Below, piece after piece: positions 39,122 through 63,195 of a DNA stretch of 64,000 nt (its first letter is position 1; each line of letters begins with the position of its first letter). Source of the stretch: Elusimicrobiota bacterium. Lineage in GTDB: Bacteria; Elusimicrobiota; Elusimicrobia; F11. The position numbers were made by a program, and so were the translations under genes. Below the pieces are notes generated by a model. That model was not told the DNA's origin, did no database searches, and worked only from the letters and a program-made list of their open reading frames with translations. The stretch spans positions 116,947-180,946 of the forward strand of contig JBJXGI010000042.1 in assembly GCA_046153645.1 (NCBI GenBank), in the 5' to 3' direction.

Positions 39122-39173
39122 TTCAAAATAAATAATAGCGTTTAATTATGAAGATGTGCTAGAAAGAGTTTCC

Positions 39174-40610: not shown

Positions 40611-40611
40611 A

Positions 40612-41652
40612 ATGAAATACAAAAAATTTATTTTTAATGTCATCGTTTTCATATTTATTTTAATTCTAATTCATTCGGGACTGTCTTTTGTGGCGCTTAA
40701 AGCCGCTCAATCTTATAAACAAGGCGTGTTTGTTATCGGTCAAGCCAAACGGGAATGGATTAGAAAGCAGCAACCCAAATTTGAATTAGGGAAAATTAAA
40801 GTCGTATTTTTAGGTAATAGTATTATTTTGTCGGGAATTATTCCTGAAGAATTTGATCGCACCTTTTCAGGGAAAACCTCAACAATTAATTTGGCTTTAC
40901 CAGCCCTTCCGATTGGCCCTGGTTATTTTGCTTTAAAAGATTTAGTTGAAGCGGGTGAAAAGCCTGATGTGGTCGTTGTCCGATTGGTATTAGATAATAG
41001 TGACCAGCCTGGATTATTCGATTTTAATGTTATTCAGGGTCTCCGTTTTCCAGAAGAATTTTTATCTTATTTGATTCATAGGAAAAACCGAGCATTTGCC
41101 CTTAATTATTTGGTGCCTTTACGAATGTATACAAATGAAACAATTCGATTTCTAAAAAACGCTCTTTTTAATAGAGAGGATATTGTTTCAAGTAAAAAAC
41201 GGAATGAAACCGAAGCGAAAAAAATGATCAATGATCGAGGGTATTATTTTATTCGTGATCAAAATATTTTTCCAGAAGGGCGACTACCAGAAGGTTTTGA
41301 TATTTTAGATCCAAAGCAAATAAAGGCAATTGAACCAGGTAAATTTATATGGGGCCAAGATCCTTATTTAGAAAAGTTTTTGGAATATACTCAGAAAAAC
41401 GGAATTAAGGTTTTTTTAATTGGGTCTATTTATCGTGAGTTCACGACGGGGCTCTTTACTCAAAAGCCATCCAGTTGCATTGAGATTTCCAAAAAATACC
41501 CGCATGTGATGAGCGGAGAAAAAAGTTGGCAATCAAAATTTTTGGGGAATTATTATTTTTCTGATAGAGTTCATTTAAATAATGACGGAGCGAAAATTTA
41601 TACGAGGTGGGTGGCAGAAGATTTTGTGAATGAAGTACTCAATCAAAAGTAA
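40612..41652 (+). CDS. SGNH/DltD-like periplasmic partner of the MBOAT
   Basis: N-terminal TM; FLGNS (GxS); DRVH (DxxH); immediately downstream of the MBOAT. Confidence 0.72.
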   Translation: MKYKKFIFNVIVFIFILILIHSGLSFVALKAAQSYKQGVFVIGQAKREWIRKQQPKFELGKIKVVFLGNSIILSGIIPEEFDRTFSGKTSTINLALPALPIGPGYFALKDLVEAGEKPDVVVVRLVLDNSDQPGLFDFNVIQGLRFPEEFLSYLIHRKNRAFALNYLVPLRMYTNETIRFLKNALFNREDIVSSKKRNETEAKKMINDRGYYFIRDQNIFPEGRLPEGFDILDPKQIKAIEPGKFIWGQDPYLEKFLEYTQKNGIKVFLIGSIYREFTTGLFTQKPSSCIEISKKYPHVMSGEKSWQSKFLGNYYFSDRVHLNNDGAKIYTRWVAEDFVNEVLNQK

Positions 41653-47756: not shown

Positions 47757-48899
47757 ATGAATTCTTCCGTCGAAATATTCGACTTTGTATTTGTAGGTGG
47801 GGGCTTGGCTGCAGGTTTGGCGGCTTACCGACTCAATCAACAATATCCACGAAAAAGAATTCTCATTATTGAAAAAGGTTTGATGTTGGGTGGGAATCAC
47901 ACCTGGTCTTTTCACGATCAAGATCTAACTTATTTACAAAAAGTATGGATGAAGCCTTTTATTTCTGCTCAATGGCCTTGTTACGAAGTTCAATTTCCTC
48001 AATATTCAAGAATTATTAACTCGCCTTATTATTCTCTATCTTCTGCGCGGTTTCACTCTGTTATTTTAGCGACGGCTATCCAATTTCGATTTAACACCAG
48101 TGTCAAAAAAATGACCCCAAAGTCGCTTGTTCTAGAATCAGATGAAATAATTGAAGGGCATTGTGTTATTGATGCCAGAGGTTGGGATAACGCTGCCAAT
48201 CACGTTCAGTTGGGTTTTCAAAAATTTGTTGGTTTTGATTTGGTTCTCAAAAAACCACATGGTTTAGCCCATCCGGTACTAATGGACGCGAAAATTAAAC
48301 AAGAAGATGGCTTTCGCTTTTTTTATTTACTTCCTTGGGAGGAAAACCGCCTTCTCATTGAAGATACGCACTATAGTGAATCTTCAGTTATTGATAGAAA
48401 TTTATTTCATTCAGAAATGCTTTCTTATGTCAAAAAGAAGAATTGGGAGATCGAGAAACTTGACCGAATTGAACAAGGATGTTTACCGATTCCGATTCGT
48501 GGAACTTTATCGAATTGGAATGATTCTATACCTAGAATTGGAACATTGGCGGGGCTTTTTCACGCAACAACCAGTTATTCTCTTGCTCAATCAGTAAGGT
48601 TGGCCGATGAAATAGCAGATTTGAAAACATTTGAACCCCAAGATATGTTTGAATGGACGTATTCAAAAGCTAAAGATCATTGGAATCGCCAACGATTTTA
48701 TCGTTTTCTAAACCGAATGCTTTTTTCCGCTATAAAACCAGAGGAAAGATATTCCGTTTTGCAGATGTTTTATAAAAAAAATGAAAATTTGATTTCACGA
48801 TTTTATGCGGATAAATTAACAGGCGTAGATTTAATTCAGTTTTTTTTAAGCAAACCTCCGCGGGTTTCATGGGCCAAGTTGGTTAACTGTTTTAATTAA
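47757..48899 (+). CDS. crtY: Lycopene beta-cyclase
   Basis: GGGLAAG; GGNHTWSFH; QKFVG; PVLMDA; QEDGFRFFYLLP; IEDTHYS; EQGCLPI; FHATTSYSL; LNRMLF. Confidence 0.92.
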   Translation: MNSSVEIFDFVFVGGGLAAGLAAYRLNQQYPRKRILIIEKGLMLGGNHTWSFHDQDLTYLQKVWMKPFISAQWPCYEVQFPQYSRIINSPYYSLSSARFHSVILATAIQFRFNTSVKKMTPKSLVLESDEIIEGHCVIDARGWDNAANHVQLGFQKFVGFDLVLKKPHGLAHPVLMDAKIKQEDGFRFFYLLPWEENRLLIEDTHYSESSVIDRNLFHSEMLSYVKKKNWEIEKLDRIEQGCLPIPIRGTLSNWNDSIPRIGTLAGLFHATTSYSLAQSVRLADEIADLKTFEPQDMFEWTYSKAKDHWNRQRFYRFLNRMLFSAIKPEERYSVLQMFYKKNENLISRFYADKLTGVDLIQFFLSKPPRVSWAKLVNCFN

Positions 48900-48904
48900 A
48901 TTTT

Positions 48905-49951
48905 ATGAATAAAGATAAAACAACAAAAAATAACTCTGATTTATTTACTGATCATCTTCAGTTAAAAAACTTCAATAAAATATTGGAATTAAAATTTGGA
49001 GGAGAAATTGGCGATTTATTGACCTCTGTTTTATGGAAACCGTTTATAGATTTAACCGGACGCCGAGGGAAAAAGATTCGAGGTCGATTGGTTGAGCTTG
49101 GTTTTCTTCTCAGTGATGAAAAACCCTCTATTGAAAAAATAGAACAATGTAAAAAATTAATGGTTGCTATTGAATATTTGCACGCAGGGTCTTTAGCCGT
49201 TGACGATGTGCAAGATGGCAGTCAAACCAGAAGGGGCGAACCTTCTCTTCATTTAAAATATGGGCTGCCGATTGCTCTTAATATTGGCAATTGGCTCTAT
49301 TTCCTCCCGCTCGAAATAATCAGGGATTTAAATTTAAACCCTTTGCAAGAATTGGAATTGTTTCATGTCTATCATAGAACTCTGACTCGAGCGCATATGG
49401 GTCAAGCCATGGATATAGGGCTTCCTGTTGATGTGTTACCTCAAGATCGCGTTTATCCTGTATGTTTGGCTTCAATGGAACTAAAAAGCGGTGCTCTTTT
49501 TTCATTGGCATTGGCTTTAGGCGCTATTTTGGGGGGTGTAAATGAGAATCAACTTCAAGCGTTAGATCGGTTTGGCCATGGTTTTGGAATAGGATTACAA
49601 ATGTTTGATGATATTGGTAACTTGAAAGGAGCCGCTGATCCCATCAAAAAATGGGAAGATTTACTTTTAAGGCGCCCCACTTTTGTTTGGGCCTGTGCCG
49701 CAAAATATTATTCTAAAGAAATTTATGAGCAATTTATTTTAGCCATTCATCAATTACCGCATGATTCACACCCTCTTCTTATTTGGCTTAACCAACATCA
49801 TTTCATAGAAAAAGCCAAACAATTAGCTCATGAACATATGAAAAATTGTTTTCAGGTCTTTGAAAAAGAATGCGGTCAAAATTCTTCTTATAAACTCATC
49901 TACCCTAAATTAACAGAACTGGCTTTAGAAGTATCTCAAGCTTATGAATAA
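48905..49951 (+). CDS. crtE: Polyprenyl (probably GGPP) synthase
   Basis: GKKIR; FARM DDVQD..RRG; HMGQAMD; LKSG; SARM variant DDIGN; located in the crt operon. Confidence 0.82.
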   Translation: MNKDKTTKNNSDLFTDHLQLKNFNKILELKFGGEIGDLLTSVLWKPFIDLTGRRGKKIRGRLVELGFLLSDEKPSIEKIEQCKKLMVAIEYLHAGSLAVDDVQDGSQTRRGEPSLHLKYGLPIALNIGNWLYFLPLEIIRDLNLNPLQELELFHVYHRTLTRAHMGQAMDIGLPVDVLPQDRVYPVCLASMELKSGALFSLALALGAILGGVNENQLQALDRFGHGFGIGLQMFDDIGNLKGAADPIKKWEDLLLRRPTFVWACAAKYYSKEIYEQFILAIHQLPHDSHPLLIWLNQHHFIEKAKQLAHEHMKNCFQVFEKECGQNSSYKLIYPKLTELALEVSQAYE

Positions 49952-51476
49952 GAAAAAAGCCATTGTGATTGGAAGTGGTTTTGGTGGTATTTCTGCAGCG
50001 ATTCGATTGCAAGCGGCAGGTTTCCAAACAACGCTTATTGAAAAAAGAGATCAGCCCGGTGGAAGAGCCTACGTTTATAAAGACAAAGGTTTCACCTTTG
50101 ATGCTGGTCCCACCGTTATTACTGCCCCTCACTGTTTAGAAGAATTGTTTGAATTATCTGATAAATCTATAAAAGATTATGTGGAAATGATTCCTATTTT
50201 TCCTTTCTATCGACTTTTCTGGGAAGATGGTTATCATTTTGATTATTCTAACGATGATCAATTATTGTTTGAACAAATTCGGAAGAAAAACTCTGTTGAT
50301 GAGACGGGGTATAAGGAATTTTTAAAATATTCGGAAGCTGTTTTTCATGAGGGGTATGAAAAACTTGTGGACGTCCCGTTTTTAGACTGGTGGAGTATGT
50401 TGCGGGTGGCACCACAATTAGCGCAGTTGTCAGCTTATCGCTCTGTGTATAGCATGGTTTCAAAATATATTTCGGATCCACAACTCCGGCAAGCTTTTAG
50501 TTTTCATTCTCTTTTGGTGGGTGGTAATCCATTTTCTTCATCGGCTATTTATACACTGATTCATTGTTTAGAGAGGAAATGGGGCGTGTTTTTCCCTGCT
50601 GGGGGAACGGGAGCTTTGGTTCAAGGACTTATTCGACTGTTTAAAGATTTGGGAGGAGAATTTCATTTAAATTCTCCTGTAGAGAAAATAAAAACTTCTC
50701 ATGGTTTGGTTTCGGGTGTAGATCTCAAATCGGGAGATTTTTTCCCGGCCGATTTGGTGGTGAGTAATGCCGATGTTGTTCACACGTACCGCGATCTCTT
50801 AAAAGATGAGAAACAAATAGCTTCAACATCTTCAAAAGTTCAGAAGATGCGTCACAGCATGTCTCTATTCTTAATTTATTTTGGTACCAACAAGAAATAT
50901 CCAAACTTAGCACATCACAATGTTATTTTTGGCCCACGTTATAAAGAATTATTAAAAGACATTTTTTCACGTGGTGTTTTGGCTGATGATTTCTCACTCT
51001 ATCTTCATGTCCCTTCAGTCACCGATCCCAGTTTGGCACCGGCCGGATCAGAAGCGTTTTACGTGTTGTCTCCAGTCCCTCATTTGGAGAAAGGAAAAAT
51101 TGATTGGGGTAGGCAAGGACCAATTTATGCAAAAAAAATATTGGATTATCTTGAGGCTCGCTATATGCCAGATCTCAAGAAACATATTGTGACCCAACGA
51201 ATTTTTACGCCGCTTGATTTCAAAACAGAATTAAATGCTCATTGGGGTTCTGCTTTTTCGTTGGAGCCCATTTTAACCCAGAGTGCTTATTTCCGAACGA
51301 AGAACAGAGATCAAAACATTTCTAATTTATATTTTGTTGGCGCTGGAACTCATCCGGGAGCTGGTATTCCTGGCGTTGTTAATTCCGCAAAAGCCACTGT
51401 CAATCTCATTTTAAAGGATTATGGACTTTCAAACCGCTCTTCCTACTTGCGAACAGCTCATCACGCAGGGGTCTAA
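49944..51476 (+). CDS. crtI: Phytoene desaturase
   Basis: IGSGFGG; FDAGPTVIT; SFHSLLVGGNP; DDFSLYLH; YFVGAGTHPGAGIPGV. Confidence 0.96.
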   Translation: MNKKKAIVIGSGFGGISAAIRLQAAGFQTTLIEKRDQPGGRAYVYKDKGFTFDAGPTVITAPHCLEELFELSDKSIKDYVEMIPIFPFYRLFWEDGYHFDYSNDDQLLFEQIRKKNSVDETGYKEFLKYSEAVFHEGYEKLVDVPFLDWWSMLRVAPQLAQLSAYRSVYSMVSKYISDPQLRQAFSFHSLLVGGNPFSSSAIYTLIHCLERKWGVFFPAGGTGALVQGLIRLFKDLGGEFHLNSPVEKIKTSHGLVSGVDLKSGDFFPADLVVSNADVVHTYRDLLKDEKQIASTSSKVQKMRHSMSLFLIYFGTNKKYPNLAHHNVIFGPRYKELLKDIFSRGVLADDFSLYLHVPSVTDPSLAPAGSEAFYVLSPVPHLEKGKIDWGRQGPIYAKKILDYLEARYMPDLKKHIVTQRIFTPLDFKTELNAHWGSAFSLEPILTQSAYFRTKNRDQNISNLYFVGAGTHPGAGIPGVVNSAKATVNLILKDYGLSNRSSYLRTAHHAGV

Positions 51477-52371
51477 AAGTTTTTCTTTAGCTGCACGCGT
51501 GTTTCCAAAAGAAACACGTCAAGCGGCTTTTGCTCTGTATTCTTGGTGCCGTCATTGTGATGACGTGATTGACGAATCAATTTTAGGAATGAAAACAACA
51601 CCCTCAAACCCCAGTGATAGAGGAGTAAAAGATAAGTTATTAAAAGATTTAGTTGAGAAAACAAAACTGGCTTATACGGATTATGTTTTTTCCGACCCCA
51701 TTTTTTTCTCTTTTCAATATGTTGTTAAAAAATATCACATTCCCATTGAATACCCTTTGGATTTATTAGAAGGAATGAAAATGGACATTTCGCATCAGGA
51801 ATATAAAACCATTTCTGATTTAGAAAAATATTGTTACTGTGTGGCTGGAACGGTGGGACTTATGATGTCTCATATTATGGGACTTAGTGATGAGAAAGCG
51901 TTAAAAAATGCTTGTGATATGGGAATTGCCATGCAGCTCACCAATATTGCCAGGGACATAAGAGAAGATTTTGAGATGAACCGAATTTATGTTCCTTTAG
52001 ATTGGTTAAAAAAAGAAAACATTCCTGCAGAAAAATTATTAGATTTAGAGCAGCGGGCCAAGTTAGTAACAATAGCGAAAAACTTAGTTAATGAAGCTGA
52101 AAGTTTTTATGAGTCTGGTGATAACGGTTTAAATAGTCTCTCTTTTCAAGCCGCTTGTGCCGTTTCTTCAGCAAGAGAAGTGTATTCTCAGATTGGAAAA
52201 CAAGTTGTTCAAAAAGGGCCTCAGGCGTTTCAAGAAAGAACGATTGTATCTTTACCAGTAAAAATATTTGTTATGTTAAAAGGGATTTTTAAGATTTTTA
52301 GTTCACTTCCCAAACGAATATTTCACCCTTGGAAAAGAGTGTCCATTAATAAAATGTGGAGAATGACATGA
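51421..52371 (+). CDS. crtB: Phytoene synthase
   Basis: GSKSF; YSWCRHCDDVID; YCYCVAGTVG; QLTNIARDIRED; RIYVP. Confidence 0.95.
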   Translation: MDFQTALPTCEQLITQGSKSFSLAARVFPKETRQAAFALYSWCRHCDDVIDESILGMKTTPSNPSDRGVKDKLLKDLVEKTKLAYTDYVFSDPIFFSFQYVVKKYHIPIEYPLDLLEGMKMDISHQEYKTISDLEKYCYCVAGTVGLMMSHIMGLSDEKALKNACDMGIAMQLTNIARDIREDFEMNRIYVPLDWLKKENIPAEKLLDLEQRAKLVTIAKNLVNEAESFYESGDNGLNSLSFQAACAVSSAREVYSQIGKQVVQKGPQAFQERTIVSLPVKIFVMLKGIFKIFSSLPKRIFHPWKRVSINKMWRMT

Positions 52372-52952
52372 GTCAAGTAAAAGAATCTTTTTGGAATGAG
52401 TTTGTCGAATATGTAAGCCAATTTCGAGTTTTTAGTAAGGGAGATTGGCAATATTATATTTGCTGGATTGGACTTATGATGGGTCTTTTTATTTCAACAA
52501 CTGCATTTCTCTTGATGGGTCATTTTCATGGGGTGCGTTACCCGGCTTATGTTTGGAATATTCCCATTGGGACTGCCACATTTATATTGGCCATTGCTCT
52601 TGATACCATTGGGCATCGAACACGTTATAAAGAACGATTGGATAAAGGTGAAGGTTTTGTTCACACCATCACTATTTTTTTAGGAATCTCTTCCATTGTT
52701 TTGTTGTGTTTAGGTTATTCACGTCCTGATTTTTTTAGAATTCCAGCCTTGGTATTTATGGCCATGTCTATTTTTTACAGCATTGTTGATGAGTGGATGC
52801 ATTGGGGGCGGTATGTTGCTGGTGAATCCGATCGTGTTGAAATGTGGAGTCATGTTTTTATTTTTCTAGGTCATATTATTATGAGTCTTGCCTGGTGGCA
52901 TTGGTTTGAACAAGGGTACCCAGGTGTTTCCGCCACACTTTTTTATTTTTAG
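52368..52952 (+). CDS. Hypothetical multi-TM protein with duplicated DxxxH...ExxxH motifs (putative di-metal enzyme)
   Basis: ATGA overlap with the crtB stop; ~5 TM segments; DTIGH/EGFVH and DEWMH/EMWSH. Confidence 0.75.
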   Translation: MSQVKESFWNEFVEYVSQFRVFSKGDWQYYICWIGLMMGLFISTTAFLLMGHFHGVRYPAYVWNIPIGTATFILAIALDTIGHRTRYKERLDKGEGFVHTITIFLGISSIVLLCLGYSRPDFFRIPALVFMAMSIFYSIVDEWMHWGRYVAGESDRVEMWSHVFIFLGHIIMSLAWWHWFEQGYPGVSATLFYF

Positions 52953-54035
52953 ATGGACTTCTTTTTTTTCATCGTTTCATGTGCTGGAACTTTTATTTAC
53001 CTCAAGCGGCTTTGGCCTCGAGATGAGAGAGAAGAGAATGATTCCGAACCATTAGAGACATTTCCTCTTATCTCAATTATTATTCCCGCGCGAAATGAAG
53101 AAGGTAACCTTCCGCGTTTATTAGATTCACTTCAAAAACTATCTTATCCCAACAAAGAAATTATTCTCATTGATGATCAATCGACAGATAAAACAGCGGA
53201 AATTGCACGGTCTTATCCCATTAAACTTCTTACAGGCACCCCGTTATCTGAGGGTTGGAACGGGAAAAATTGGGCGTGTCACCAAGCTGTTTTGCAAGCG
53301 CAAGGAGAATATTTTCTCTTTACTGATGCAGATACAGAACATACTGAAAATAGTTTGGAAAAAGCATTGGTAGCTTACCGTCATAAAAAAGCTGATTTAA
53401 TGTCTGCTTTGCCCTATCATAGAAATGAGACCTGGTGGGAAAAAATGATGGGCCCCTTTCATGCCCTTTTGTTAACGGCAACCAATGCCTACCAACCGAG
53501 ATTCCGTCGGTTATATGCAGTAGGGCAATATTTATTTTTTTCAAGGTCATCATATTTTGAGCAAGGGGGTCATGAAGGAGTTAAAGCCCAGTATCCCGAT
53601 GATTTGGCCTTAGCCAATGCCTGTATTAGTACAGGTGGTTTTTTTGCCATCTATACCAAAGAACCCTTATTTAATGTGCGAATGTATCCTGGTTTTAAAC
53701 TGTTTATTCAAGGTTGGAGAAGAAATTTTTTAGCGGGGATGCAGCAGTCAGACTTCTCCGGTACTTTTGATGTGATCATGGTAATTATTGCTCTAACTTC
53801 AGCGGGTCATGCACCTTTTTTCTTTTGGGGTGGTTTTACGGCATTTATTTGTGGCGGATTTTTACTGTGGCGCCAACATAAGTGGGGAAATTTTTCAATT
53901 CTAGGTCCCCTGTTTCCCATTGTTTCTTTGGTGCCCTATGGCATTGTAACACTACTGGCTCTTTCTGATTATTTACGCGGCAACGTCCTTAAATGGAAAG
54001 GAAGATCTTACGTGGGTTGGACCTCTAAAGAATAA
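52953..54035 (+). CDS. Carotenoid glycosyltransferase, GT2 (CrtQ/CruC/CruG-like)
   Basis: IIPARNEE; DDQSTD; GWNGKNWAC; FTDAD; DDLAL; VRMY; GWRRN; WKGR; last gene of the crt operon. Confidence 0.8.
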   Translation: MDFFFFIVSCAGTFIYLKRLWPRDEREENDSEPLETFPLISIIIPARNEEGNLPRLLDSLQKLSYPNKEIILIDDQSTDKTAEIARSYPIKLLTGTPLSEGWNGKNWACHQAVLQAQGEYFLFTDADTEHTENSLEKALVAYRHKKADLMSALPYHRNETWWEKMMGPFHALLLTATNAYQPRFRRLYAVGQYLFFSRSSYFEQGGHEGVKAQYPDDLALANACISTGGFFAIYTKEPLFNVRMYPGFKLFIQGWRRNFLAGMQQSDFSGTFDVIMVIIALTSAGHAPFFFWGGFTAFICGGFLLWRQHKWGNFSILGPLFPIVSLVPYGIVTLLALSDYLRGNVLKWKGRSYVGWTSKE

Positions 54036-54038
54036 TTG

Positions 54039-54476
54039 TTATCGAAGATCTATTTGATAAAGCATCCAATAGATAACAACACCCGTCACCGACACGTACA
54101 TCCAAAAAGGCCAAACCCACCGAGCCAGCTGAGCATGTTTTAAAAAATCATTTCTAATGGCGTGATAAATTGTTTTTAAAATAAAAGGAACAATAAGGGT
54201 TGCTAAAATGGTGTGACTAATAAGAATGGTGAAGTATATTGTTCTTATTATTCCCTGCCCGGCAAATTTGGTACTCCCAAAGTGATAGTGGTAATAGAGA
54301 TAAAAACCTAAAAATAGAACTGAAGTCATAAAGGCCAGGCTCATTGAAATTCGGTGAGCTAAAATATTTTTTTTCTTGATACAAATAAAACCTATTAATA
54401 AAAAAAGGGCACAAATTCCGTTTAAAGTGGCATTGAGAGAAGGAATATGGATTGTGTTAAATAGCAAGTTTTTCAA
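54039..54476 (-). CDS. DUF420 (CtaM/YozB-like) oxidase assembly membrane protein
   Basis: PSLNATLN; HRISM; YFTILISHTILA; WMYVSVTGVVIY. Confidence 0.88.
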   Translation of the reverse strand: MKNLLFNTIHIPSLNATLNGICALFLLIGFICIKKKNILAHRISMSLAFMTSVLFLGFYLYYHYHFGSTKFAGQGIIRTIYFTILISHTILATLIVPFILKTIYHAIRNDFLKHAQLARWVWPFWMYVSVTGVVIYWMLYQIDLR

Positions 54477-55101
54477 CTCTCTTTTTTAGCTCTTTCATTT
54501 GATCTGAATCAGCAGTGTTATAATATCCCAATATTTTTCCTTCACCATTAACGAGAACAAACATGGTGCTATGGAGAATGTCTATTCCGTCTTTGGGAAT
54601 GTCATCTCCTTCAACAAGAAGTTTAAAGCTCGTTTCTACTAAATGATAAATTTTTTCACGGTTCCCTGTTAAAAATAACCACTTTTGTGGATCCGCGTTA
54701 TAAGTTTGAGCATATTTTGTGAGAACTTGCGGTGTGTCAAAATCAGGGTCAACACTCAAAGAAATAAATTGGAGATTTGATTTGTGGAGAAACTCTTTAC
54801 TGAAATCAGACATTTTTTTTGTCATGAGAGGGCATGGGCCCATACACCGAGTAAATACAAAATCAACAATCGAAATTTTTCCTTTTAAATCCTCTTGTGT
54901 TATTTTTTTCCCACTTCTCTCAGTGAACTCGAAATCTCCCACTTTTCCGAAATCAATATCGGGTCTTTGAAGGGTTGATGTGGTGGGATCATATGGTGGT
55001 TCAGGTGGCGAAATATTTTTTTTGTGTTTTATGAGTAGCCCAACAATAACAAAAGCCAAAACCACCATGAGGGTTCGACTTATCATTTTTATGCGGTCCA
55101 T
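54457..55101 (-). CDS. sco: SCO/SenC copper chaperone
   Basis: FVFTRCMGPCP (CxxxC); SVDP.FDTP; WLFLTG; HST. Start taken as ATG 55101. Confidence 0.92.
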   Translation of the reverse strand: MDRIKMISRTLMVVLAFVIVGLLIKHKKNISPPEPPYDPTTSTLQRPDIDFGKVGDFEFTERSGKKITQEDLKGKISIVDFVFTRCMGPCPLMTKKMSDFSKEFLHKSNLQFISLSVDPDFDTPQVLTKYAQTYNADPQKWLFLTGNREKIYHLVETSFKLLVEGDDIPKDGIDILHSTMFVLVNGEGKILGYYNTADSDQMKELKKRVEKLAI

Positions 55102-55102
55102 T

Positions 55103-55897
55103 TTAAGAATCCTTTTGATGCGTGACCCATAGAGAAATTCCATATACAACAATGGAAAAGACAAGAGTCACTTGTAATGAAAAAATAGGAGTGGGAAAGT
55201 TTAAGGAACCCATCTCGATGCCGTTTCCGAGCGCTTTTCTTAAACCCGTTAAACTATAAGAGAGTGGATTTAATTTCATAACAATTTTTAACCAACCCGG
55301 TGCTCCTTCGGCAGGAAACATGGCTCCTGATAAAAACCAAAGTGGCATAAGAAAAAGATTCATAATAGCGTGGAACCCTTGAGTTGAGTCCATCTTCCAA
55401 GCAATAATAAATCCAAGAGCGGTTAATGAGAACGACACAAGAAGCATCATAGCAATCGAATAAAGAATATCTAAGAAGCCGGGTTTAATTCCAATAATAG
55501 GGGCCAAGAATAAAAATAATATTCCTTGTCCCGTGGCCAGGGCCGTTCCCCCTAAAACTTTTCCCATAATAATGGCTCCTCGAGGAGCAGGAGAGACCAG
55601 CACGCTTTGGAGAAAACCTTCTTTTCTATCTTCAATAATAGAAATCGTTGAAAAAATCGAAGTAAAAAGGAGAATTAAAAAAATGGTTCCAGGGAAAAAG
55701 TAATTTAGATAATTTGACGCGCTCATCATTTCCACTGTTTGACTGGTATCCTGAAATGATTTTCCAAGTCCTGATCCAATAAGAATCCAAAATAGAAGAG
55801 GCGTTCCAAGAGCGCCAATAATGCGATTTTTCTGTCGTACAAAACGAACCACTTCTCGTTTAAATAAAGTTAAGGACGCGCTTAAAAATAAATTCAT
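55103..55897 (-). CDS. ABC-2 type transporter permease
   Basis: REVVRF; EDRKEGFLQSVLVSP; FLSGAMFP; LNPLSY. Start taken as ATG 55897. Confidence 0.9.
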   Translation of the reverse strand: MNLFLSASLTLFKREVVRFVRQKNRIIGALGTPLLFWILIGSGLGKSFQDTSQTVEMMSASNYLNYFFPGTIFLILLFTSIFSTISIIEDRKEGFLQSVLVSPAPRGAIIMGKVLGGTALATGQGILFLFLAPIIGIKPGFLDILYSIAMMLLVSFSLTALGFIIAWKMDSTQGFHAIMNLFLMPLWFLSGAMFPAEGAPGWLKIVMKLNPLSYSLTGLRKALGNGIEMGSLNFPTPIFSLQVTLVFSIVVYGISLWVTHQKDS

Positions 55898-55898
55898 A

Positions 55899-56849
55899 TT
55901 AAATTTCCTTTTCTTGTTGATGAAAAGTATGTCCCGTTTCTTTAACAAACACATCTTCAAGTGTTGGTTTTCCAACAGATATAGCTGCAATCATTCCTGG
56001 AAAAGCTTCCACGAGAGTGGGAACAAATTTATGCCCCTCTTGGATTTCAATGCGAAAAACGCCATCAACAACCGATGATTTAACAGGAAATTTTTGATTT
56101 ACTTCTTTCGCTAATTTTTGAGGGTCGGCTGTTTGCACTGTAATGATATCGGCTCCAATTTTGTTTTTTAGCTCGAGTGGTGTCCCTTGGGTGATACACC
56201 GGCCTTTATTTAAAATAAGAAGCTCGTCGCACTTTTCAGCCTCTTCCATCAGATGAGTGGTCACTAAAATTGTGACGCCTTTATTTTTTAAGCTTAACAA
56301 GAGTTCCCATAAATCATGTCGAGCTCCTGGGTCTAAGCCTGTGCTTGGCTCATCTAAAAGCAATAACGAGGGATTATGAAGAAGGCCTTTAGCAATTTCT
56401 ACTCTTCTTTGTAAGCCGCCCGATAATGTTTCAACAAAGTCCTCACGGCGATCGCGTAGAGAAAATTGTGTTAAGAGTTGATCGCTTTTTCGACGGATGG
56501 TTTCATGATTAAGTCCATAAAGACGACCTTGATGAATAATGTTTTCAATGACGGTTAATTTTTTATCCAAGCTTGGTGATTGAAACACAACGCCAATTTT
56601 TTTTCTTATTTCATCTGATTGAGAAGAAAGGTCTAACCCAAATATGAGAGCATTGCCTGAAGTTGGTTTGAGTGCTGTTGATAAAATTTTAAATAAAGTT
56701 GTTTTTCCGCCACCATTGGGTCCCACCAGTCCAAAAATAGATCCTTCTTTTACTTGGAAATGTATTTGATTGAGCGCTTGTTGATCTGATTTTGAGCGTT
56801 TTCCTTTATAGGTGTGAGAAAGATTTTTAACATCAATAGCAGTCATCAT
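55899..56849 (-). CDS. ABC-2 type transporter ATPase
   Basis: GPNGGGKTT; LSGGLQRR; LDEPSTGLDP; TTH; PTLEDVF. Confidence 0.94.
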   Translation of the reverse strand: MMTAIDVKNLSHTYKGKRSKSDQQALNQIHFQVKEGSIFGLVGPNGGGKTTLFKILSTALKPTSGNALIFGLDLSSQSDEIRKKIGVVFQSPSLDKKLTVIENIIHQGRLYGLNHETIRRKSDQLLTQFSLRDRREDFVETLSGGLQRRVEIAKGLLHNPSLLLLDEPSTGLDPGARHDLWELLLSLKNKGVTILVTTHLMEEAEKCDELLILNKGRCITQGTPLELKNKIGADIITVQTADPQKLAKEVNQKFPVKSSVVDGVFRIEIQEGHKFVPTLVEAFPGMIAAISVGKPTLEDVFVKETGHTFHQQEKEI

Positions 56850-58606
56850 TAAAAACCCACCTTTAATTGCGGCCAGCGATTCAATACCAGTACCAACATT
56901 AATACAGGAACATACAGAAGCGAAAAAAGAAAAAGTTTTTTTGCGTAAATATTTGAATTGGTTTGGAAAAATTGATAACTATAAATAAGGAGAGGCAGAG
57001 TTAAGAAAATAGCCGTTCCCAAATAAATGAGCCCTGCCATTTTCAAAAAATAAGGTAAACAACTCGCCGCTAATAATAAAATTGTGTTCAATAATGCTGT
57101 TCCTGATGTGGATTTCTCGTTGGGGAAAAAATCGGGAAGCATGTGATATCCTGCTCCTCCATAGTCTTCTTTATAAAGCCACGCTAGAGAAAGAAAGTGG
57201 GGAAATTGCCAGAAAAATATGATTCCAAAAAGATTCCATGCTTCAATGCCAATGGTATTGGTGGCTGCCGCCCAGCCCATCATGGGAGGGAGCGCGCCTG
57301 AAACAGCCCCTACAGTTACACAAACAGCGGAAATTTTTTTAAGAGGCGTATAAATGTATAAATAAATACTTAATGTGAGTGCCGCTAAAAAAGCAGTTAA
57401 ATAATTGATAGATCCAGCTAAGTAAATAATTCCTACAAGAGAACACAATCCGCCAAAAATGAGAACTTCCCAGGGCCGCAATCGACCGGAGGGTAAAGGT
57501 CGTTCCTGTGTACGTTTCATTTGGGCATCACTTTTCATTTCAATGAGCATGTTGAGGGCTCCAGCGCCGGCTGCAACCAGTAATGTGCCAAGGCTCGTAT
57601 GAATTAATTTAATCCAATCAAAATGATCGCGACTTCCAAGAATATATCCACCAAGAGCGGTGATACCCGCCATAAAACTAATGCCTGGTTTTGTGAGTGT
57701 AACGTAGTCTTTCAATATGGTTTGAAGCGGTGGGCTTTGAAGAGGCCTGGTTTTATAAGCAACCAAAGCTTGAATGACTGTTCCACTTAAGAAAAAAGCA
57801 CCTATGACGACATGAGTTGATACCAAAATATAAGACCATAAAGGTCCTGGAATTGTTTCAAATGTGTGGTTGATAATAAAATAAGTGCAAATACCAAGGC
57901 TTATTTGAACCAACAAAAGAAGGGATAATCCTAAACTTAATCGAAATAATTTTTTTCGCTCCGGATGAAATTGAAAAATTCGTTTAGTAACCCAAAATGT
58001 AAGACTCGCCACTAAAACAGCGCCAAAAATATGAAAAGGTAAATTTTCCCCCGTATGACGAGTGAGCGCACCTAAAAATAGTTGAATAAAGGAAGCAAAA
58101 AATAAAATAAGTGTCAGTCGATGGAGCGGGACATATTGTGCTGATTCTGTTCTGATGATGGGTTCTTTATTCCAAAATGAAGAAGTCCAAATAAACAAGC
58201 AAACCACGAGACAAAAAAAAGTTTGAGCCAAGATGGCATGACCCATTGAAATTGGTTTTGGTAGAAGAAATAAAACGGTGAGACCACCCAGAACTCCTTG
58301 GAGAATAACAAGAGCCAATGCTGCCCAGGCCATTTTCTTCAACCATTTTCTCTCTTCTTTCATTTGAAAAAAAACAGCAAGGATAATTGTAATAAACCCA
58401 ACTAAAGTGGCAATCATTCTATGGCCATGTTCATAAAAAATTCCACCGATCATGGGTGGCATAACCTGCCCATAGGAAAGTGGCCAATCAGGTACAGATA
58501 AAGATGAACCTGTACTTTTCACCATTCCTCCAGCAAATATCAGAAGGCCTGTGAAACAAACCAAGACCAATGAAAGGCGATTAAGCCAAGGATTGATTGT
58601 CTTCAT
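56849..58606 (-). CDS. ctaA-ctaB: Fused heme A synthase / heme O synthase
   Basis: N-terminal half: PDWP, EHGHR, MGHA, PFH, STH. C-terminal half: LTKPG, DAQMKRT..RPLPSGR, YTPLKK, GALPPMMG, WQFPHF, EDY. Confidence 0.9.
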   Translation of the reverse strand: MKTINPWLNRLSLVLVCFTGLLIFAGGMVKSTGSSLSVPDWPLSYGQVMPPMIGGIFYEHGHRMIATLVGFITIILAVFFQMKEERKWLKKMAWAALALVILQGVLGGLTVLFLLPKPISMGHAILAQTFFCLVVCLFIWTSSFWNKEPIIRTESAQYVPLHRLTLILFFASFIQLFLGALTRHTGENLPFHIFGAVLVASLTFWVTKRIFQFHPERKKLFRLSLGLSLLLLVQISLGICTYFIINHTFETIPGPLWSYILVSTHVVIGAFFLSGTVIQALVAYKTRPLQSPPLQTILKDYVTLTKPGISFMAGITALGGYILGSRDHFDWIKLIHTSLGTLLVAAGAGALNMLIEMKSDAQMKRTQERPLPSGRLRPWEVLIFGGLCSLVGIIYLAGSINYLTAFLAALTLSIYLYIYTPLKKISAVCVTVGAVSGALPPMMGWAAATNTIGIEAWNLFGIIFFWQFPHFLSLAWLYKEDYGGAGYHMLPDFFPNEKSTSGTALLNTILLLAASCLPYFLKMAGLIYLGTAIFLTLPLLIYSYQFFQTNSNIYAKKLFLFSLLYVPVLMLVLVLNRWPQLKVGF

Positions 58607-58808
58607 TTGATTTTCGTTTGCTGGCTCGAATGATCCAAGTTGTTAAGCCAAGAATGAGAGAGAAAAGGAGGGCTAATAAAACAACAACTCCCCAAAAAAA
58701 ACCGCGTGTCATATTGGAGTTATCACCTCCAAAACAAACCGCGCAAGCAGAGGCTGATTTAATGAGGAATAAAGAGAGACTAAAAAAAACAAATTTCATA
58801 TAGGACAT
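58581..58808 (-). CDS. Small membrane protein with a CxxC (ACAVCFG) motif
   Basis: Signal-like segment ending ASA, then CAVCFG, one TM and a basic tail. Start is ATG 58808 or 58799. Confidence 0.7.
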   Translation of the reverse strand: MSYMKFVFFSLSLFLIKSASACAVCFGGDNSNMTRGFFWGVVVLLALLFSLILGLTTWIIRASKRKSNEDNQSLA

Positions 58809-58825
58809 AAATTTAAAATCCGAAT

Positions 58826-58903
58826 TGTCACCCCCGAAATTTTCTATCGGGGGTCTAAAGTTAGTTAAATTTAGATCCCGCACAGAAGATTTGCGGGATG
58901 ACG
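58826..58903. repeat. CGTC-type composite palindromic repeat, copy 2
   Basis: gtcacccccga-aattttcta-tcgggggtct...agatcccgca-cagaagatt-tgcgggatgacg. The first hairpin is nearly identical to copy 1 at 34866. Confidence 0.8.
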
Positions 58904-58943
58904 GTTATTTTGATGATAGTGCAAGAGGCTAAAGAGAAGTTGT

Positions 58944-59222
58944 TTATTGTAAACCGATGTCTGGTAAAATCGCTAAAACCAAAATAGCCACAAAAAATAA
59001 TGCCGATAAAAGGATGAAGGTAAGGCTTCGGCTGTCAAATTTGAGATGCATGAAGAATGCGGCAATCAGCGCGCATTTGGTTAATGCAATAAGAACGGCG
59101 AGCGCGATTCCCACGTGATGAGGTAATCCCAAATAAGACAAAAGCACTGTGGCTCCTGTTAAAATAGCAAGCCCCACAAAAACAAGCAAATATCTCTTTG
59201 TTGATGATGAACCGTGTTCCAT
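58944..59222 (-). CDS. ctaF: Heme-copper oxidase subunit IV
   Basis: Y..VF..L..LT; K..LIAAFFMHLKFD; 3 TMs. Confidence 0.88.
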   Translation of the reverse strand: MEHGSSSTKRYLLVFVGLAILTGATVLLSYLGLPHHVGIALAVLIALTKCALIAAFFMHLKFDSRSLTFILLSALFFVAILVLAILPDIGLQ

Positions 59223-59229
59223 AATTAAT

Positions 59230-59808
59230 TTACACCAAATAAAAGAGAGGAAATAAAATAACCCAGACTAAATCGACAAAATGCCAATAGAGTCCACAGT
59301 ATTCAACTCTTTCCCATCTTTGATCAGAATATTTTCCGCGTAATCCATTTATGAGGATATACAAATTAAACACAAGACCACCAAGCATATGCAACCCATG
59401 AAGCCCTGTCATGGTGTAGTAAAAAGACCCAAAAAGACTGCTGGTGATGGTAATGCCTTCATGAATTTTATGGTGATACTCAAAACCCTTAATAACGAGA
59501 AAACAAATCCCCAATAAAGAAGTTAAAGAAAGAAATCCTAAAAATCTTTTAACTTTGTTGGCTTGAATAGCGGCCAAAGCAAAAACCATCGTGACACTAC
59601 TGCAGATCAAAACAAAAGTATTTAAAGTCGCTAACGGTTTTCCTAAGAGTTCTGCAGGTGGGCGTCCAAAATTAGAGCTTCCCATGTGCAAAACAATATA
59701 AGAACTAATAAGAGCTCCGAAGAGCATCACCTCAGAAGCCAAAAAGACCCACATTCCTAATTTTCCACTGGGAATACCCGTGGCGTTTCTTTCCATCATT
59801 GTTTCCAT
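59230..59808 (-). CDS. ctaE: Heme-copper oxidase subunit III (short form)
   Basis: GMWVFLASEVMLF; NTFVLICSSVT; TGLHGLH; YWHFVDLVW. Confidence 0.94.
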   Translation of the reverse strand: METMMERNATGIPSGKLGMWVFLASEVMLFGALISSYIVLHMGSSNFGRPPAELLGKPLATLNTFVLICSSVTMVFALAAIQANKVKRFLGFLSLTSLLGICFLVIKGFEYHHKIHEGITITSSLFGSFYYTMTGLHGLHMLGGLVFNLYILINGLRGKYSDQRWERVEYCGLYWHFVDLVWVILFPLFYLV

Positions 59809-59816
59809 GTCTTCCT

Positions 59817-61550
59817 CTATTTTAGTTCCGATTCTGGTTTATCTTGCGGCCACCAATCTTGTTTTTGGTTGGGGACACTATATTCATAGGGATCACAATA
59901 AACCACAGGTTCTTTAACAAAATTGCCGTGAGGGGGAGGTGAAGGGCAAGCCCATTCTAAGGTGGTTGCTTGCCACGGGTTTTCTTCAGATTTTTTACCT
60001 TTAAAAATGCTCACAAAAATATTGATAAGAAATGGGAATTGAAATAAAAGCAGAAGCATAGCCGAAGTAAATTGCATGGGGCTTAATGTTTGTGTTGTTA
60101 AGTTGTGGGCTTGGGCGGTTGGATCGTAAAGTCGCCGTTGCATACCGGCCATACCCTGAATAAACATGGGAAAGAATATGCCATTCATGAAAATAATGGT
60201 TCCCCAAAAGTGAACTTTTCCCCAAAATTGATTCATTTGACGGCCAAACATTTTTGGAAACCAATAATAAATTCCGCCCATAAGAGCAATTAAAGTCCCC
60301 GTGACAACCACATAATGGAAATGCCCAATAACATAATAAGTGTCATGTAGATAAATGTCGGTGGGTAAAAAACCAAGGGGTAACCCTGTAAGCCCACCAA
60401 TGCCAAACATCGGTAAGAAGGCAAGAGCAAACAACATAGGAACCGTAAAACGAATAGAAGCTCCCCAAAGACTAAATAAAAGGCAACTTAAAATAGCTAC
60501 CGAGGGAATGGAAATAATCATGGTTGTCGTCATGAAAATAGTGCTGAGTGATGTTTTCATGCCTGACAAAAACATGTGATGAGCCCAAACTAAGAATGAC
60601 AATAGTCCTAAAAAGAGAATGGAACCCACCAGCGTTTTATAACCATAAAGTGGTTTGCGCGTATTGTTGGCAATAATTTCAGCCACCACACCCATCGCAG
60701 GAAGAATTAAAACATAAACTTCGGGGTGTGCTAAAAACCAAAATAAATGTTGATAGAGAAGCGCACTGCCGCCTCCGACACGATCTAAGATTTGCCCGTT
60801 AATAACAAGCCCGGCAGGAAGGTAAAAACTTGTTCCAGCAACCCGGTCTAATAGTTGGAGAATAGCACCCGATTGCAAGACAGGAAATGCGAATAAAAGA
60901 AGGATGGCTGTAATAAATTGGGCCCAAACAAAAATAGGAAGCTTCATCCAAGTTAACCCTTTGGCTCTGAGGTTTACTGTTGTAACAATAAAGTTAATGC
61001 TTCCAAACAAAGACGAAGTGATCAGAAAAGTCATGGCAATCAGCCAAACAGTTTGCCCCGCCGGCATGATAACGGAAAGTGGAGGGTAAGAAGTCCACCC
61101 TGATTGAGCGGCACCCCCTGGCATAAAAAAACTTGAAAGCATAACAATGCCGCCTAGAAAATAAGTCCAATAGCTCATGGCATTTAATTTAGGGAAAGCC
61201 ATATCTCCAGCGCCAATTTGAAGGGGAAGAAGGTAATTGCCATAAAAACCAACGCCCAAAGGAACAATACCAAGGAAAATCATAATGGTTCCATGCATAG
61301 CGCCGAGTTGATTGTAAAATTCAGGCAACATAATGCCACCCGGAGCAAAGCTATCACCAAAAAATCCGCCGATGAAAGGCATGGGTTTGCCAGGATAAGC
61401 CAATTGCCATCTCATTAAAATGACAAACAAAAAACCTAATAAAAGAAAAATAATAGAAGTAAATAGGTATTGAAGCCCTATGACTTTATGATCAAGTGAG
61501 AATATATATTTGCGCACGAAACCTAGTTCGTGATGATCGTTTTGACTCAT
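59817..61550 (-). CDS. ctaD: Heme-copper oxidase subunit I, A1 type
   Basis: DHKVIG; MHGT; GWTSYPPL; FWFLAHPEVY; WAHH; HDTYYVIGHFHY; GMQRR. Start taken as ATG 61550. Confidence 0.97.
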   Translation of the reverse strand: MSQNDHHELGFVRKYIFSLDHKVIGLQYLFTSIIFLLLGFLFVILMRWQLAYPGKPMPFIGGFFGDSFAPGGIMLPEFYNQLGAMHGTIMIFLGIVPLGVGFYGNYLLPLQIGAGDMAFPKLNAMSYWTYFLGGIVMLSSFFMPGGAAQSGWTSYPPLSVIMPAGQTVWLIAMTFLITSSLFGSINFIVTTVNLRAKGLTWMKLPIFVWAQFITAILLLFAFPVLQSGAILQLLDRVAGTSFYLPAGLVINGQILDRVGGGSALLYQHLFWFLAHPEVYVLILPAMGVVAEIIANNTRKPLYGYKTLVGSILFLGLLSFLVWAHHMFLSGMKTSLSTIFMTTTMIISIPSVAILSCLLFSLWGASIRFTVPMLFALAFLPMFGIGGLTGLPLGFLPTDIYLHDTYYVIGHFHYVVVTGTLIALMGGIYYWFPKMFGRQMNQFWGKVHFWGTIIFMNGIFFPMFIQGMAGMQRRLYDPTAQAHNLTTQTLSPMQFTSAMLLLLFQFPFLINIFVSIFKGKKSEENPWQATTLEWACPSPPPHGNFVKEPVVYCDPYEYSVPNQKQDWWPQDKPESELK

Positions 61551-61569
61551 AATCTTATCCTCTTCGTTT

Positions 61570-62337
61570 TTATTCGGCAGAAGCCAATTTGGCTTGAATT
61601 TGTTCCATTTTCCACTTTTCAAAATCTTCTGGAGAATGAACAATCACGGTTCCTTTCATTCGATAATGTCCGAGGCCGCACAATTGAGCGCAGCCAATTT
61701 CAAAGGCCCCTGTTTTAATGGGTTTAAACCAAAGTGGAATTCGCATGCCAGGAACAGTATCTTGTTTGACGCGAAATTCTGGAACAAAAAAACTATGGAT
61801 AACATCTTTCGATGTCATATAAATAATTGTGGGTTTATCGATGGGAACATGAAGCTCATTTGTAAGAACAAAGTCATCTTGAGATAAAGGGTCTGTGTCA
61901 TCTAATCCAATTAAATTTCCAGAGCTGATGAGTTTGATGTCTTTTTTTCCAAATAAATTGTCAGTTCCCGGATAGTGAAAGCTCCAAGCAAATTGCTCGG
62001 CCACCATTTCAACAACATGAGATTGATTGGCGATGGGAAAATCTTCTTTTACTTTAGACCATATTGGTAAACCAAGAGCAAAAACCAACCAAAGTTCAAA
62101 AGCCAAAACCATGAAATCTGGTAGAAACGAAATCATTCCGCCTTTAGCCGCCGCATGGTTGGCAGAGGGGTTAGCGCCTTTTCGATACTTAAATAAGCAG
62201 AATGTAAAAAAAATTCCCCACAAAACAAAAATAATTAACATTCCAATATGGAGAATATGAAGGGATTTATCAATTTCAGCGGCGTAACTAGAAGCTGCGA
62301 TGGGTAATCCAAAAGTGTAGTTGCTTTGCTCGATCAT
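61570..62337 (-). CDS. ctaC: Heme-copper oxidase subunit II (CuA; no fused cytochrome c)
   Basis: Two TMs; QFAW; DVIHSF; CAQLCGLGHYRM CuA motif; no CxxCH. Confidence 0.94.
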   Translation of the reverse strand: MIEQSNYTFGLPIAASSYAAEIDKSLHILHIGMLIIFVLWGIFFTFCLFKYRKGANPSANHAAAKGGMISFLPDFMVLAFELWLVFALGLPIWSKVKEDFPIANQSHVVEMVAEQFAWSFHYPGTDNLFGKKDIKLISSGNLIGLDDTDPLSQDDFVLTNELHVPIDKPTIIYMTSKDVIHSFFVPEFRVKQDTVPGMRIPLWFKPIKTGAFEIGCAQLCGLGHYRMKGTVIVHSPEDFEKWKMEQIQAKLASAE

Positions 62338-62355
62338 GATTTCATTTTATGTCTT

Positions 62356-62402
62356 AAAAAAAGAAATGCCCCCTCACTCAAAATAAAGAGCGAGGAGGCA
62401 TT
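62356..62402 (-). terminator. Hairpin plus U-tract between the cupredoxin gene and ctaC
   Basis: Minus-strand RNA AAUGCCUCCUCGCUC-UUUAUUUU-GAGUGAGGGGGCAUU-UCUUUUUUU; 15-bp stem with two G-U pairs. Confidence 0.82.
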
Positions 62403-62412
62403 ATATGAGAAA

Positions 62413-63195
62413 TTAAGCGCCTTTAAAGGTGAAAGTTATACTTTTTGTTTCTGAAGCACCAACGGTGACTTTTTGAACAGAAGTGCCATATTTTTCATGC
62501 CAGGCTTCAATTTCATATTCACCCGGAGGCAAATTGGCCAGTGAGAACGAACCATCTTCACCAGTAATAGAAAAATAGGGATGGTTAAACACGCTGATGG
62601 TTCCATGCATCCAAGGATGAACATCGCATTTCACAGGAATTCCAGTTTCAATTTCTGAAAAAGTCTTTTTGTTTTCCATTCCTTGAACGGGTTGACCAAA
62701 GTTGAACCCTTGGTTTTTGGTAGGTCTGGCGTTAACGTTATGAAGAACGCCATCAGAATTACGAACCAATAATTCTTGGCCGGCTTGGAGCGCAACTGCA
62801 TGAGGAACATACAAACAACCAATTTGATCAAGAATGACTGGAGTTGTTGGAGTGGGGAATTTTAAATTCGCATCGAGTCCGCTTTTAACATAAATAACCA
62901 CGTTTTTGAGTGTGTTGTTGGCATTCACAGTCACTTCTTCTGAAAGAACATCGGTGGTATGTTTGGTTTTGCAATAGGCATCAGCGCCCATGGCTAATTT
63001 TTGAGATTTTGGTTTGGCGCCAGTAAATTTGACGCTGCCTGAAACAGTGGCGGCTGTAGCTGAATCAACGGGGTTTTGAACGGCTTGCTCTACGGGAGCG
63101 GCTTCGGTTGGGGCGGCGGCCTGTTCTGATCCGCCTTTTTTGCATCCGCTGAGAGCTAAAAAGCCAGCGGCTAATAAAACGCTAAAACGTGACAT
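62413..63195 (-). CDS. Lipoprotein with cupredoxin-like type-1 Cu motif and carboxypeptidase-regulatory-like beta domain
   Basis: Lipobox LSGC; LDQ.GC.Y.P; HNV...CDVHPWM; DGSFSL.NLPPGEYEIEAWHE; CAGGAGG RBS. Confidence 0.82.
   Translation of the reverse strand: MSRFSVLLAAGFLALSGCKKGGSEQAAAPTEAAPVEQAVQNPVDSATAATVSGSVKFTGAKPKSQKLAMGADAYCKTKHTTDVLSEEVTVNANNTLKNVVIYVKSGLDANLKFPTPTTPVILDQIGCLYVPHAVALQAGQELLVRNSDGVLHNVNARPTKNQGFNFGQPVQGMENKKTFSEIETGIPVKCDVHPWMHGTISVFNHPYFSITGEDGSFSLANLPPGEYEIEAWHEKYGTSVQKVTVGASETKSITFTFKGA

Follow-up and report, generated by a model that had tools for sequence, protein, structure and literature searches.

A small membrane protein encoded in a carotenoid operon of an Elusimicrobiota bacterium is, with slightly better than even probability, a di-iron enzyme that stands in for the non-homologous hydroxylase CrtZ and hydroxylates the β-rings of carotenoids. 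We use X as a working name for the gene and its homologues. X is tied to crtY, excludes crtZ and not cruF, and shares the partner genes of crtZ, and it is this combination that points to a β-ring hydroxylase without homology to CrtZ. The X family is real, unannotated and strongly conserved, and probably represents a new scaffold on which an already known reaction is carried out. If this is true, X would fill a pathway hole in most of the sampled carotenoid-producing Bdellovibrionota-type genomes (46 of 62 genomes with crtY have X without crtZ), would provide a new membrane metal-enzyme scaffold without a solved relative, and would add a small new hydroxylase to the enzymes available for engineering zeaxanthin or astaxanthin. 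It would also bear on the source of 3-hydroxylated antennas in the hosts of Kin4B8-like rhodopsins.

Gene X and its conserved residues

The gene lies in a window of 64,000 nt, the whole stretch of DNA that was analysed (forward-strand positions 116,947-180,946 of contig JBJXGI010000042.1, assembly GCA_046153645.1), from a genome with a completeness of 99.7%. The order of genes on the + strand is crtY-crtE-crtI-crtB-X-GT2 (Table 1). The ATG start of X overlaps the crtB stop codon as ATGA, and the ATG of the GT2 directly follows the TAG stop codon at 52950-52952, in agreement with an earlier sequence-only reading that placed a membrane protein of about 194 amino acids in translational coupling between crtB and a glycosyltransferase. 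The crtI gene is the sole full-length member of its family in the genome. The GT2 is probably a carotenoid glycosyltransferase.

Table 1. Positions in the window of the operon genes and of the X motifs.
Feature	Position	Strand	Support
crtY, lycopene β-cyclase	47757..48899	+	TIGR01789, 367.8 bits, above cut-off
crtE-like polyprenyl (GGPP) synthase	48905..49951	+	PF00348, E 1.5e-40
crtI, phytoene desaturase	49944..51476	+	TIGR02734, 674 bits
crtB, phytoene synthase	51421..52371	+	PF00494, E 7.8e-66
Gene X, 194-aa membrane protein with five long helices, candidate β-ring hydroxylase	52368..52952	+	no Pfam or NCBIfam family
First acid/His motif pair of X, codons of D79-x3-H83 ... E95-x3-H99	52602..52664	+	kept in 272-273/273
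Second motif pair of X, codons of D141-E142-x2-H145 ... E158-x3-H162	52788..52853	+	kept in 273/273
GT2 glycosyltransferase	52953..54035	+	PF00535; weak sub-cut-off HpnB/CruG matches

Profile searches of the window's genome gave no match to crtZ, CruF, CrtC, P450, CrtW or rhodopsin; positive controls were matched in the CruF, CrtC and P450 searches, and the crtZ and CrtW profiles found their matches in other genomes. A lone PF04116 gene lies away from the crt genes and is not CrtZ. Glycosylation by the coupled enzyme requires a hydroxyl group, and as the genome lacks the known suppliers we read X as a hydroxylase. Hydroxylation of an unactivated ring carbon requires O2 and a redox metal. Judged from the sequence, the − strand of the window carries a heme-copper oxidase operon at 54039-63195 with SCO1, DUF420 and an ABC pair, and within it an apparent fusion of heme A synthase and heme O synthase (56849-58606), so that use of O2 by this organism is plausible; on the + strand an MBOAT-like O-acyltransferase and a partner gene (39156-41652) lie beside a sulfate adenylyltransferase-like gene.

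A homologue search with X found 598 sequences, or 626 using a profile, and clustering at 50% left 79 representatives, three of them at 28-29% identity. Conservation was assessed in 273 distinct homologues, made up of the 157 top matches, six distant members and the sequences from the loci. There is no variation at H83, E95, Y137, D141, E142, H145, R148, E158 or H162, and D79 and H99 are each kept in 272. Nine acid/His positions, comprising four histidines and five acids, are therefore kept in 272-273 of 273. H169 (269/273) and Y87 and Y149 (243/273) are replaced in the most distant members. The residues listed by the sequence-only reading are all present, with its numbers shifted by +4 through counting from a GTG at 52356; the correct pattern is D79-x3-H83-x3-Y87...E95-x3-H99, then D141-x3-H145-x3-Y149...E158-x3-H162, and H169. 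The invariant E142 (D-E-x2-H) was overlooked. The same reading described an internal two-fold repeat. The spacing of the motifs does echo between the halves, but their resemblance is no better than chance (the score is reached by 303 of 2000 shuffles, and hhalign gives 0.3%), and the repeat is thus one of motif spacing only.

In the AlphaFold model of X (pLDDT 94.4, pTM 0.86) a short N-terminal helix precedes the five long helices. The acid/His pairs, which had been anticipated at helix ends, are modeled where helices 60-83 and 120-150 end and where helices 88-116 and 156-181 begin, and this would place them all at the same face of the membrane. The loops there are rich in lysine and arginine (3.3 and 2.8 per loop, compared with 0.35 and 1.15 on the opposite side), indicating that the motif side is likely to face the cytoplasm. 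A set of four histidines and five acids, all near the same end of the bundle, would suit two irons. The modeled helix ends and topology are compatible with di-iron four-helix-bundle proteins of the ferritin-like and hemerythrin-like kinds; no known di-iron fold was matched by the model, YtfE lying at Z 7.0 with an rmsd of 5.2.

We infer metal binding and activity of X. CrtE, CrtB, CrtI and CrtY would make β-carotene, whose rings would be hydroxylated by X acting as an inner-membrane oxygenase, most likely at C3. The His and acid residues of helices 2-5 are predicted to meet at the cytoplasmic end of the four-helix bundle, where they would bind two iron atoms. A carotenoid ring would reach this site from the membrane and be attacked at C3 by O2 activated at the irons, with electrons from a ferredoxin-type donor of the cell. 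The expected products are of the β-cryptoxanthin or zeaxanthin type, and would be modified downstream by the GT2 here, and by GT1 or CrtG-like enzymes elsewhere.

Distribution of X and exclusion of crtZ

The co-occurrence of X, crtY and crtZ was counted in one sample of 301 Bdellovibrionota-type genomes, from the phylum of a Bdellovibrionia genome, 49 of which contain X. crtY was found in 62 genomes, in 56 above the cut-off. The crtZ profile, built from six genomes of this sample together with Pantoea CrtZ, matched 29 genomes, of which 27 were kept after two weak matches were dropped. The 62 crtY genomes divide into 46 with X only, 11 with crtZ only, one with both (9.1 expected) and four with neither, giving a Fisher p of 3e-8 in which kin are not independent. 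Six of the 11 crtZ-only genomes contributed to the crtZ profile, and this counts against the weight of the exclusion. When only the 56 over the cut-off are taken, the numbers are 45, nine, one and one; 55 of 56 thus have X or crtZ, the pattern that a single required step would produce. In the four genomes with neither, crtY is weak, partial or lacks an operon. The predicted anticorrelation of X with crtZ is therefore borne out, with both present in one of 49 carriers.

In G324, the sole genome with both, X is broken by an in-frame stop and a frameshift, and crtZ lies in a rhodopsin module of order crtZ-crtW-cruF-acyltransferase-GT2-rhodopsin-blh. The same module without crtZ is present in G258 and G243, where X is intact. 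X is also broken in genomes that lack crtZ, by a frameshift in G167 and by a missing 5' part in G307, which counts against a stand-in for CrtZ. Among 15 crtY loci without X, crtZ adjoins crtB or crtY in six. A further 15 crtZ genomes lack this crtY and also X, and 10 of the 12 that were fetched have a crtI-crtB-crtYcd-crtZ cluster. On the best trees there are 11 changes of state between X and crtZ for CrtY (54 rows) and seven for CrtI (55 rows). Well-supported CrtY branches provide only three independent pairs (p 0.5), and the CrtI tree does not reject the grouping of all crtZ operons in one clade (AU p 0.244). The exclusion is counted by genome, and the phylogenetic contrasts have too little power, which counts against the weight of the exclusion.

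X and crtZ have partners in common. An MGT-like GT1 follows crtZ in two loci (L130, L138) and lies by X in four (L075, L076, L087, L088), and CrtG-like sterol desaturases and an ABC pair accompany both genes alike. According to the accessible text of PMC3324416 and PMC3111180 some CrtG enzymes accept plain β-carotene, so that CrtG partners are no proof of a 3-hydroxyl product.

X is linked to carotenoid genes. crtY is present in 47 of 49 carriers, and among 47 genome loci, taken from about 52 carriers, crtI is found in 44 and crtY in 41. Of 193 metagenome matches 80 loci were kept, many on short contigs, and 61 of these have crtY, crtE, crtI or crtB within 6 kb; crtZ is near X in 0/80 metagenome and 0/47 genome loci. 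Five loci (L015, L022, L030, L035, L050) have at least 600 bases upstream and no crt gene within 6 kb, and L030 carries 6 kb of unrelated genes. Such loci count against β-ring hydroxylation. In a high-GC group (L016, L018, L022, L030, L035, L050) X does not lie by crt genes; a small set of conserved genes and a cation-efflux gene come after it.

The sequence-only reading had proposed that X is the missing oxygenase, hydroxylase or hydratase that creates a glycosyl acceptor, with linkage to GT2 and anticorrelation with cruF. The crt linkage, the exclusion of crtZ and the lack of annotation agree with this; the prediction for cruF failed, and that for GT2 holds in a minority of loci. A GT2 directly after X does occur, but as a minority trait (14/80 metagenome and 6/47 genome loci). 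In tests of CruF, CrtW and rhodopsin in 80 chosen genomes, CruF was present in 12/49 X genomes and 4/26 with crtZ only. This is no anticorrelation, and narrows the choice towards a ring hydroxylase.

In the window's own lineage X was found in two of 60 relatives, and 200 further relatives gave no convincing X (one weak row). Being rare here and common in Bdellovibrionota-type genomes, the crt-X operon of the window may have been acquired.

Several features of the neighboring genes were seen in passing. Between crtE and X of L098 (7494-9998) is an 834-aa open reading frame with a CrtI match and the size of a CrtI-CrtB fusion, and similar cases occur at several other X loci without a separate crtB. 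A BstC-like TPR protein (L110:14922-15662 and 17 other loci), an AsmA-family protein (L128:10267-12372) and a lipocalin (L092:5837-6412) recur beside crt operons, hinting at transport of carotenoids to the outer membrane. L132:7734-8993 is a crtY without crtI or crtB in a glycosyltransferase cluster, and groups with the CrtY of the window (SH-aLRT 98). The crtY-like genes of L139, L140 and L142 are divergent (27-29% identity), and their conserved surroundings have no carotenoid genes.

Comparison with known families and alternative functions

Pfam and NCBIfam scans found no family for X or its distant members, and nothing consistent among 38 members. No match at E <= 0.001 was obtained with Foldseek against PDB and BFVD. 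A sequence search of the PDB produced a single chance match, the ESM Atlas only unnamed clusters and the plasmid search no match. VIA-align tied TMEM120, TSPO and PhoU at Z 8.7-9.2 and rmsd 3.4-4.2, which for this model is the range of generic helical bundles; PSS1, SAA and Wnt chains were not among the 50 best matches listed, which end at Z 6.5. No longer or fused form was seen among 261 candidates, as weak evidence, and three long matches appear to be crtB running on into X after a frameshift. The family thus remains without a Pfam, NCBIfam or clear fold match, as the sequence-only reading had supposed. No description of it was found in the literature that is free of subscription; the supplements of the Lipocone preprint may list it, and the accessible parts of PMC9304148 and PMC2889829 do not mention it.

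X resembles CrtZ (FA_hydroxylase, PF04116) in being a small membrane protein with many invariant histidines, in its place after crtB, in its partner genes (GT1, CrtG-like and the ABC pair) and in its complementary distribution. Unlike CrtZ it has no PF04116 match (hhalign 0.3%) and lacks the HxxxxH/HxxHH boxes of the CrtZ alignment, having instead D/E-x3-H motifs and five acids. We infer that X works like CrtZ and is not a member of its family. There is precedent, as cyanobacterial CrtR and the P450 CYP175A1 indicate that β-ring 3-hydroxylation was invented more than once (PMC3111180, in its accessible part); X has no desaturase-type or P450 match, and the window's genome has no P450. The FA_desaturase family of CrtW and CrtR (PF00487) gives an hhalign value of 0.2%, with weak sub-cut-off matches in only three of 38 members; a distant member reaches 25.9 bits against a cut-off of 29.7. 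The β-carotene 15,15'-dioxygenase Blh/Brp (PF15461) and the hydratase CruF (PF04240) are also membrane carotenoid enzymes of the same genomes. Both, however, are separate genes in X-positive genomes, and X has neither a Pfam nor a profile match to them, the CruF comparison using a shallow two-row alignment. True blh genes adjoin rhodopsins, apart from X. Rhodopsin is present in only 12/49 X genomes and 4/26 with crtZ only, and absent from the window's genome, a distribution that rules out X as Blh. X is therefore neither CruF nor Blh, and its distinctness from the CrtZ and CrtW boxes and from these two enzymes stands, with hhalign at most 0.3% against all four.

A metal oxygenase acting on β-carotene might give another product, such as a 4-hydroxy or 4-keto ring, an epoxide or an apocarotenoid, and compete with CrtZ for substrate. 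The strict tie to crtY would suit this. CrtW is scarce, being found in 2/48 X-only genomes compared with 8/27 crtZ genomes, and X may on that account make a different product from CrtZ. Four histidines, each with an acid one turn away, could also hold a single iron with hydrogen-bonded acids, as in carotenoid cleavage oxygenases, and the cleavage variant would use such a four-His site with second-shell acids. Yet crtW co-occurs with intact X in G243 and G258 and mostly forms a cassette with an adjacent crtZ, rhodopsin is present in only 12/49 X genomes and has real Blh beside it, and the near-universal presence of X or crtZ in full-score crtY genomes is that of one needed step. We regard another product as unlikely. 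Less probable still is that X hydrates a carotenoid double bond, as CruF and CrtC do in forming a 1'-hydroxyl group, to provide an acceptor for a GT2 of what we take to be the CruC type. The GT2 after X shares 31% identity with a GT2 from a cruF module, an acyclic-end type, which also counts against ring hydroxylation, and the window's genome has no CruF or CrtC. Against the hydratase, CruF is more frequent in X genomes than in those with crtZ only, the exclusion concerns crtZ and not cruF, few genome loci have a GT2 after X, and the profile of X is unlike CruF.

The Lipocone family VanZ-2 (PF04892) may share with X a membrane core of four helices, in which H2 carries His, H3 Glu and a second polar residue, and H4 an acid with a polar residue four later. 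X contains the VanZ motif as H99, E142 and E158 (Glu for Asp), and H99, Y137, D141-E142, H145, S154, E158 and H162 are in register with VanZ motifs. The His-Glu spacing of 43 and the 16 from Glu to the next acid are close to the 41-43 and 15 of VanZ (22/22 rows). VanZ is the best of 11 profiles for X, level with a VanZ-Wok positive control, and its score beats 100/100 column shuffles, although this control is weak. The accessible part of the preprint (10.1101/2025.01.14.632903) describes a gene of the Wok family that neighbors carotenoid genes. X might then act on an isoprenoid phosphate head group, for example by removing or exchanging the diphosphate of a prenyl-PP, and not on the carotene ring. 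But the hhalign probability is only 1.3-6.4% (p about 0.02-0.04), Blh scores close behind (10.4 vs 11.0), and the structural neighbors of the two models barely overlap. Even the VanZ model reaches PSS1/PSS2, which are known Lipocones, at no more than Z 6.1-6.2, below the Z 6.5 at which the list for X stops. X also has an extra N-terminal helix, D79/H83 and His in place of Gln/Asp, with three extra invariant histidines, and its site is predicted to be cytoplasmic whereas the accessible preprint text predicts outer-leaflet Lipocone sites. A head-group reaction leaves the exclusion of crtZ and the tie to crtY unexplained, and we consider it quite improbable. The least probable function is that of a non-catalytic carotenoid-binding, scaffolding or export protein like TSPO/CrtK. 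TSPO is among the best structural rows (Z 9.1-9.2, rmsd about 4), and AsmA, BstC-like, lipocalin and ABC genes are neighbors of X; this Z is no better than that of generic bundles such as TMEM120 and PhoU, there is no Pfam match, X has nine invariant acid/His residues, and a carrier need not exclude crtZ.

Bdellovibrio pigment and Kin4B8-like rhodopsins

The carotenoid genes of the yellow bacterium B. bacteriovorus HD100 are given as bd1723-bd1725 and bd1730 in the accessible part of PMC3539863. Four X loci have crtE-crtI-crtB-X, three genes and then crtY; this spacing is the same, and bd1726 is therefore probably X. No structure of the HD100 pigment was found in the literature.

Kin4B8, a rhodopsin from an uncultured member of the Bdellovibrionota, is reported to bind zeaxanthin and lutein and not β-carotene, through Gly153, Ser208 and Tyr209 (10.1101/2022.08.24.505090, in its accessible part). 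Three genomes with X and without crtZ, G128 (508.8 bits to 7YTB), G100 and G114, encode full-length Kin4B8-like xanthorhodopsins that are close relatives of Kin4B8. All keep the Ser and Tyr and have Ala at 153, so that binding of an antenna is not assured.

The β-ring hydroxylase reading of X can be extended to its origin, although we hold the extension to be unlikely as a whole. X would be a further independent hydroxylase, derived from a VanZ/Lipocone-type lipid head-group fold that the extra helix flipped in the membrane and that turned into a di-iron oxygenase by acquiring histidines. Predatory Bdellovibrionota would hydroxylate their carotenoids mainly through X, and where crtZ is absent this would include the antenna of Kin4B8-type xanthorhodopsins.

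Kin4B8-like xanthorhodopsins with Ala for the fenestration Gly153 lie beside blh in L165, L166 and L184. A module of cruF, acyltransferase and GT2 recurs in L152-L157, L167 and L171. It is often accompanied by crtW, blh and a xanthorhodopsin, and suggests that Bdellovibrionota-type genomes have an antenna pathway like that of salinixanthin.
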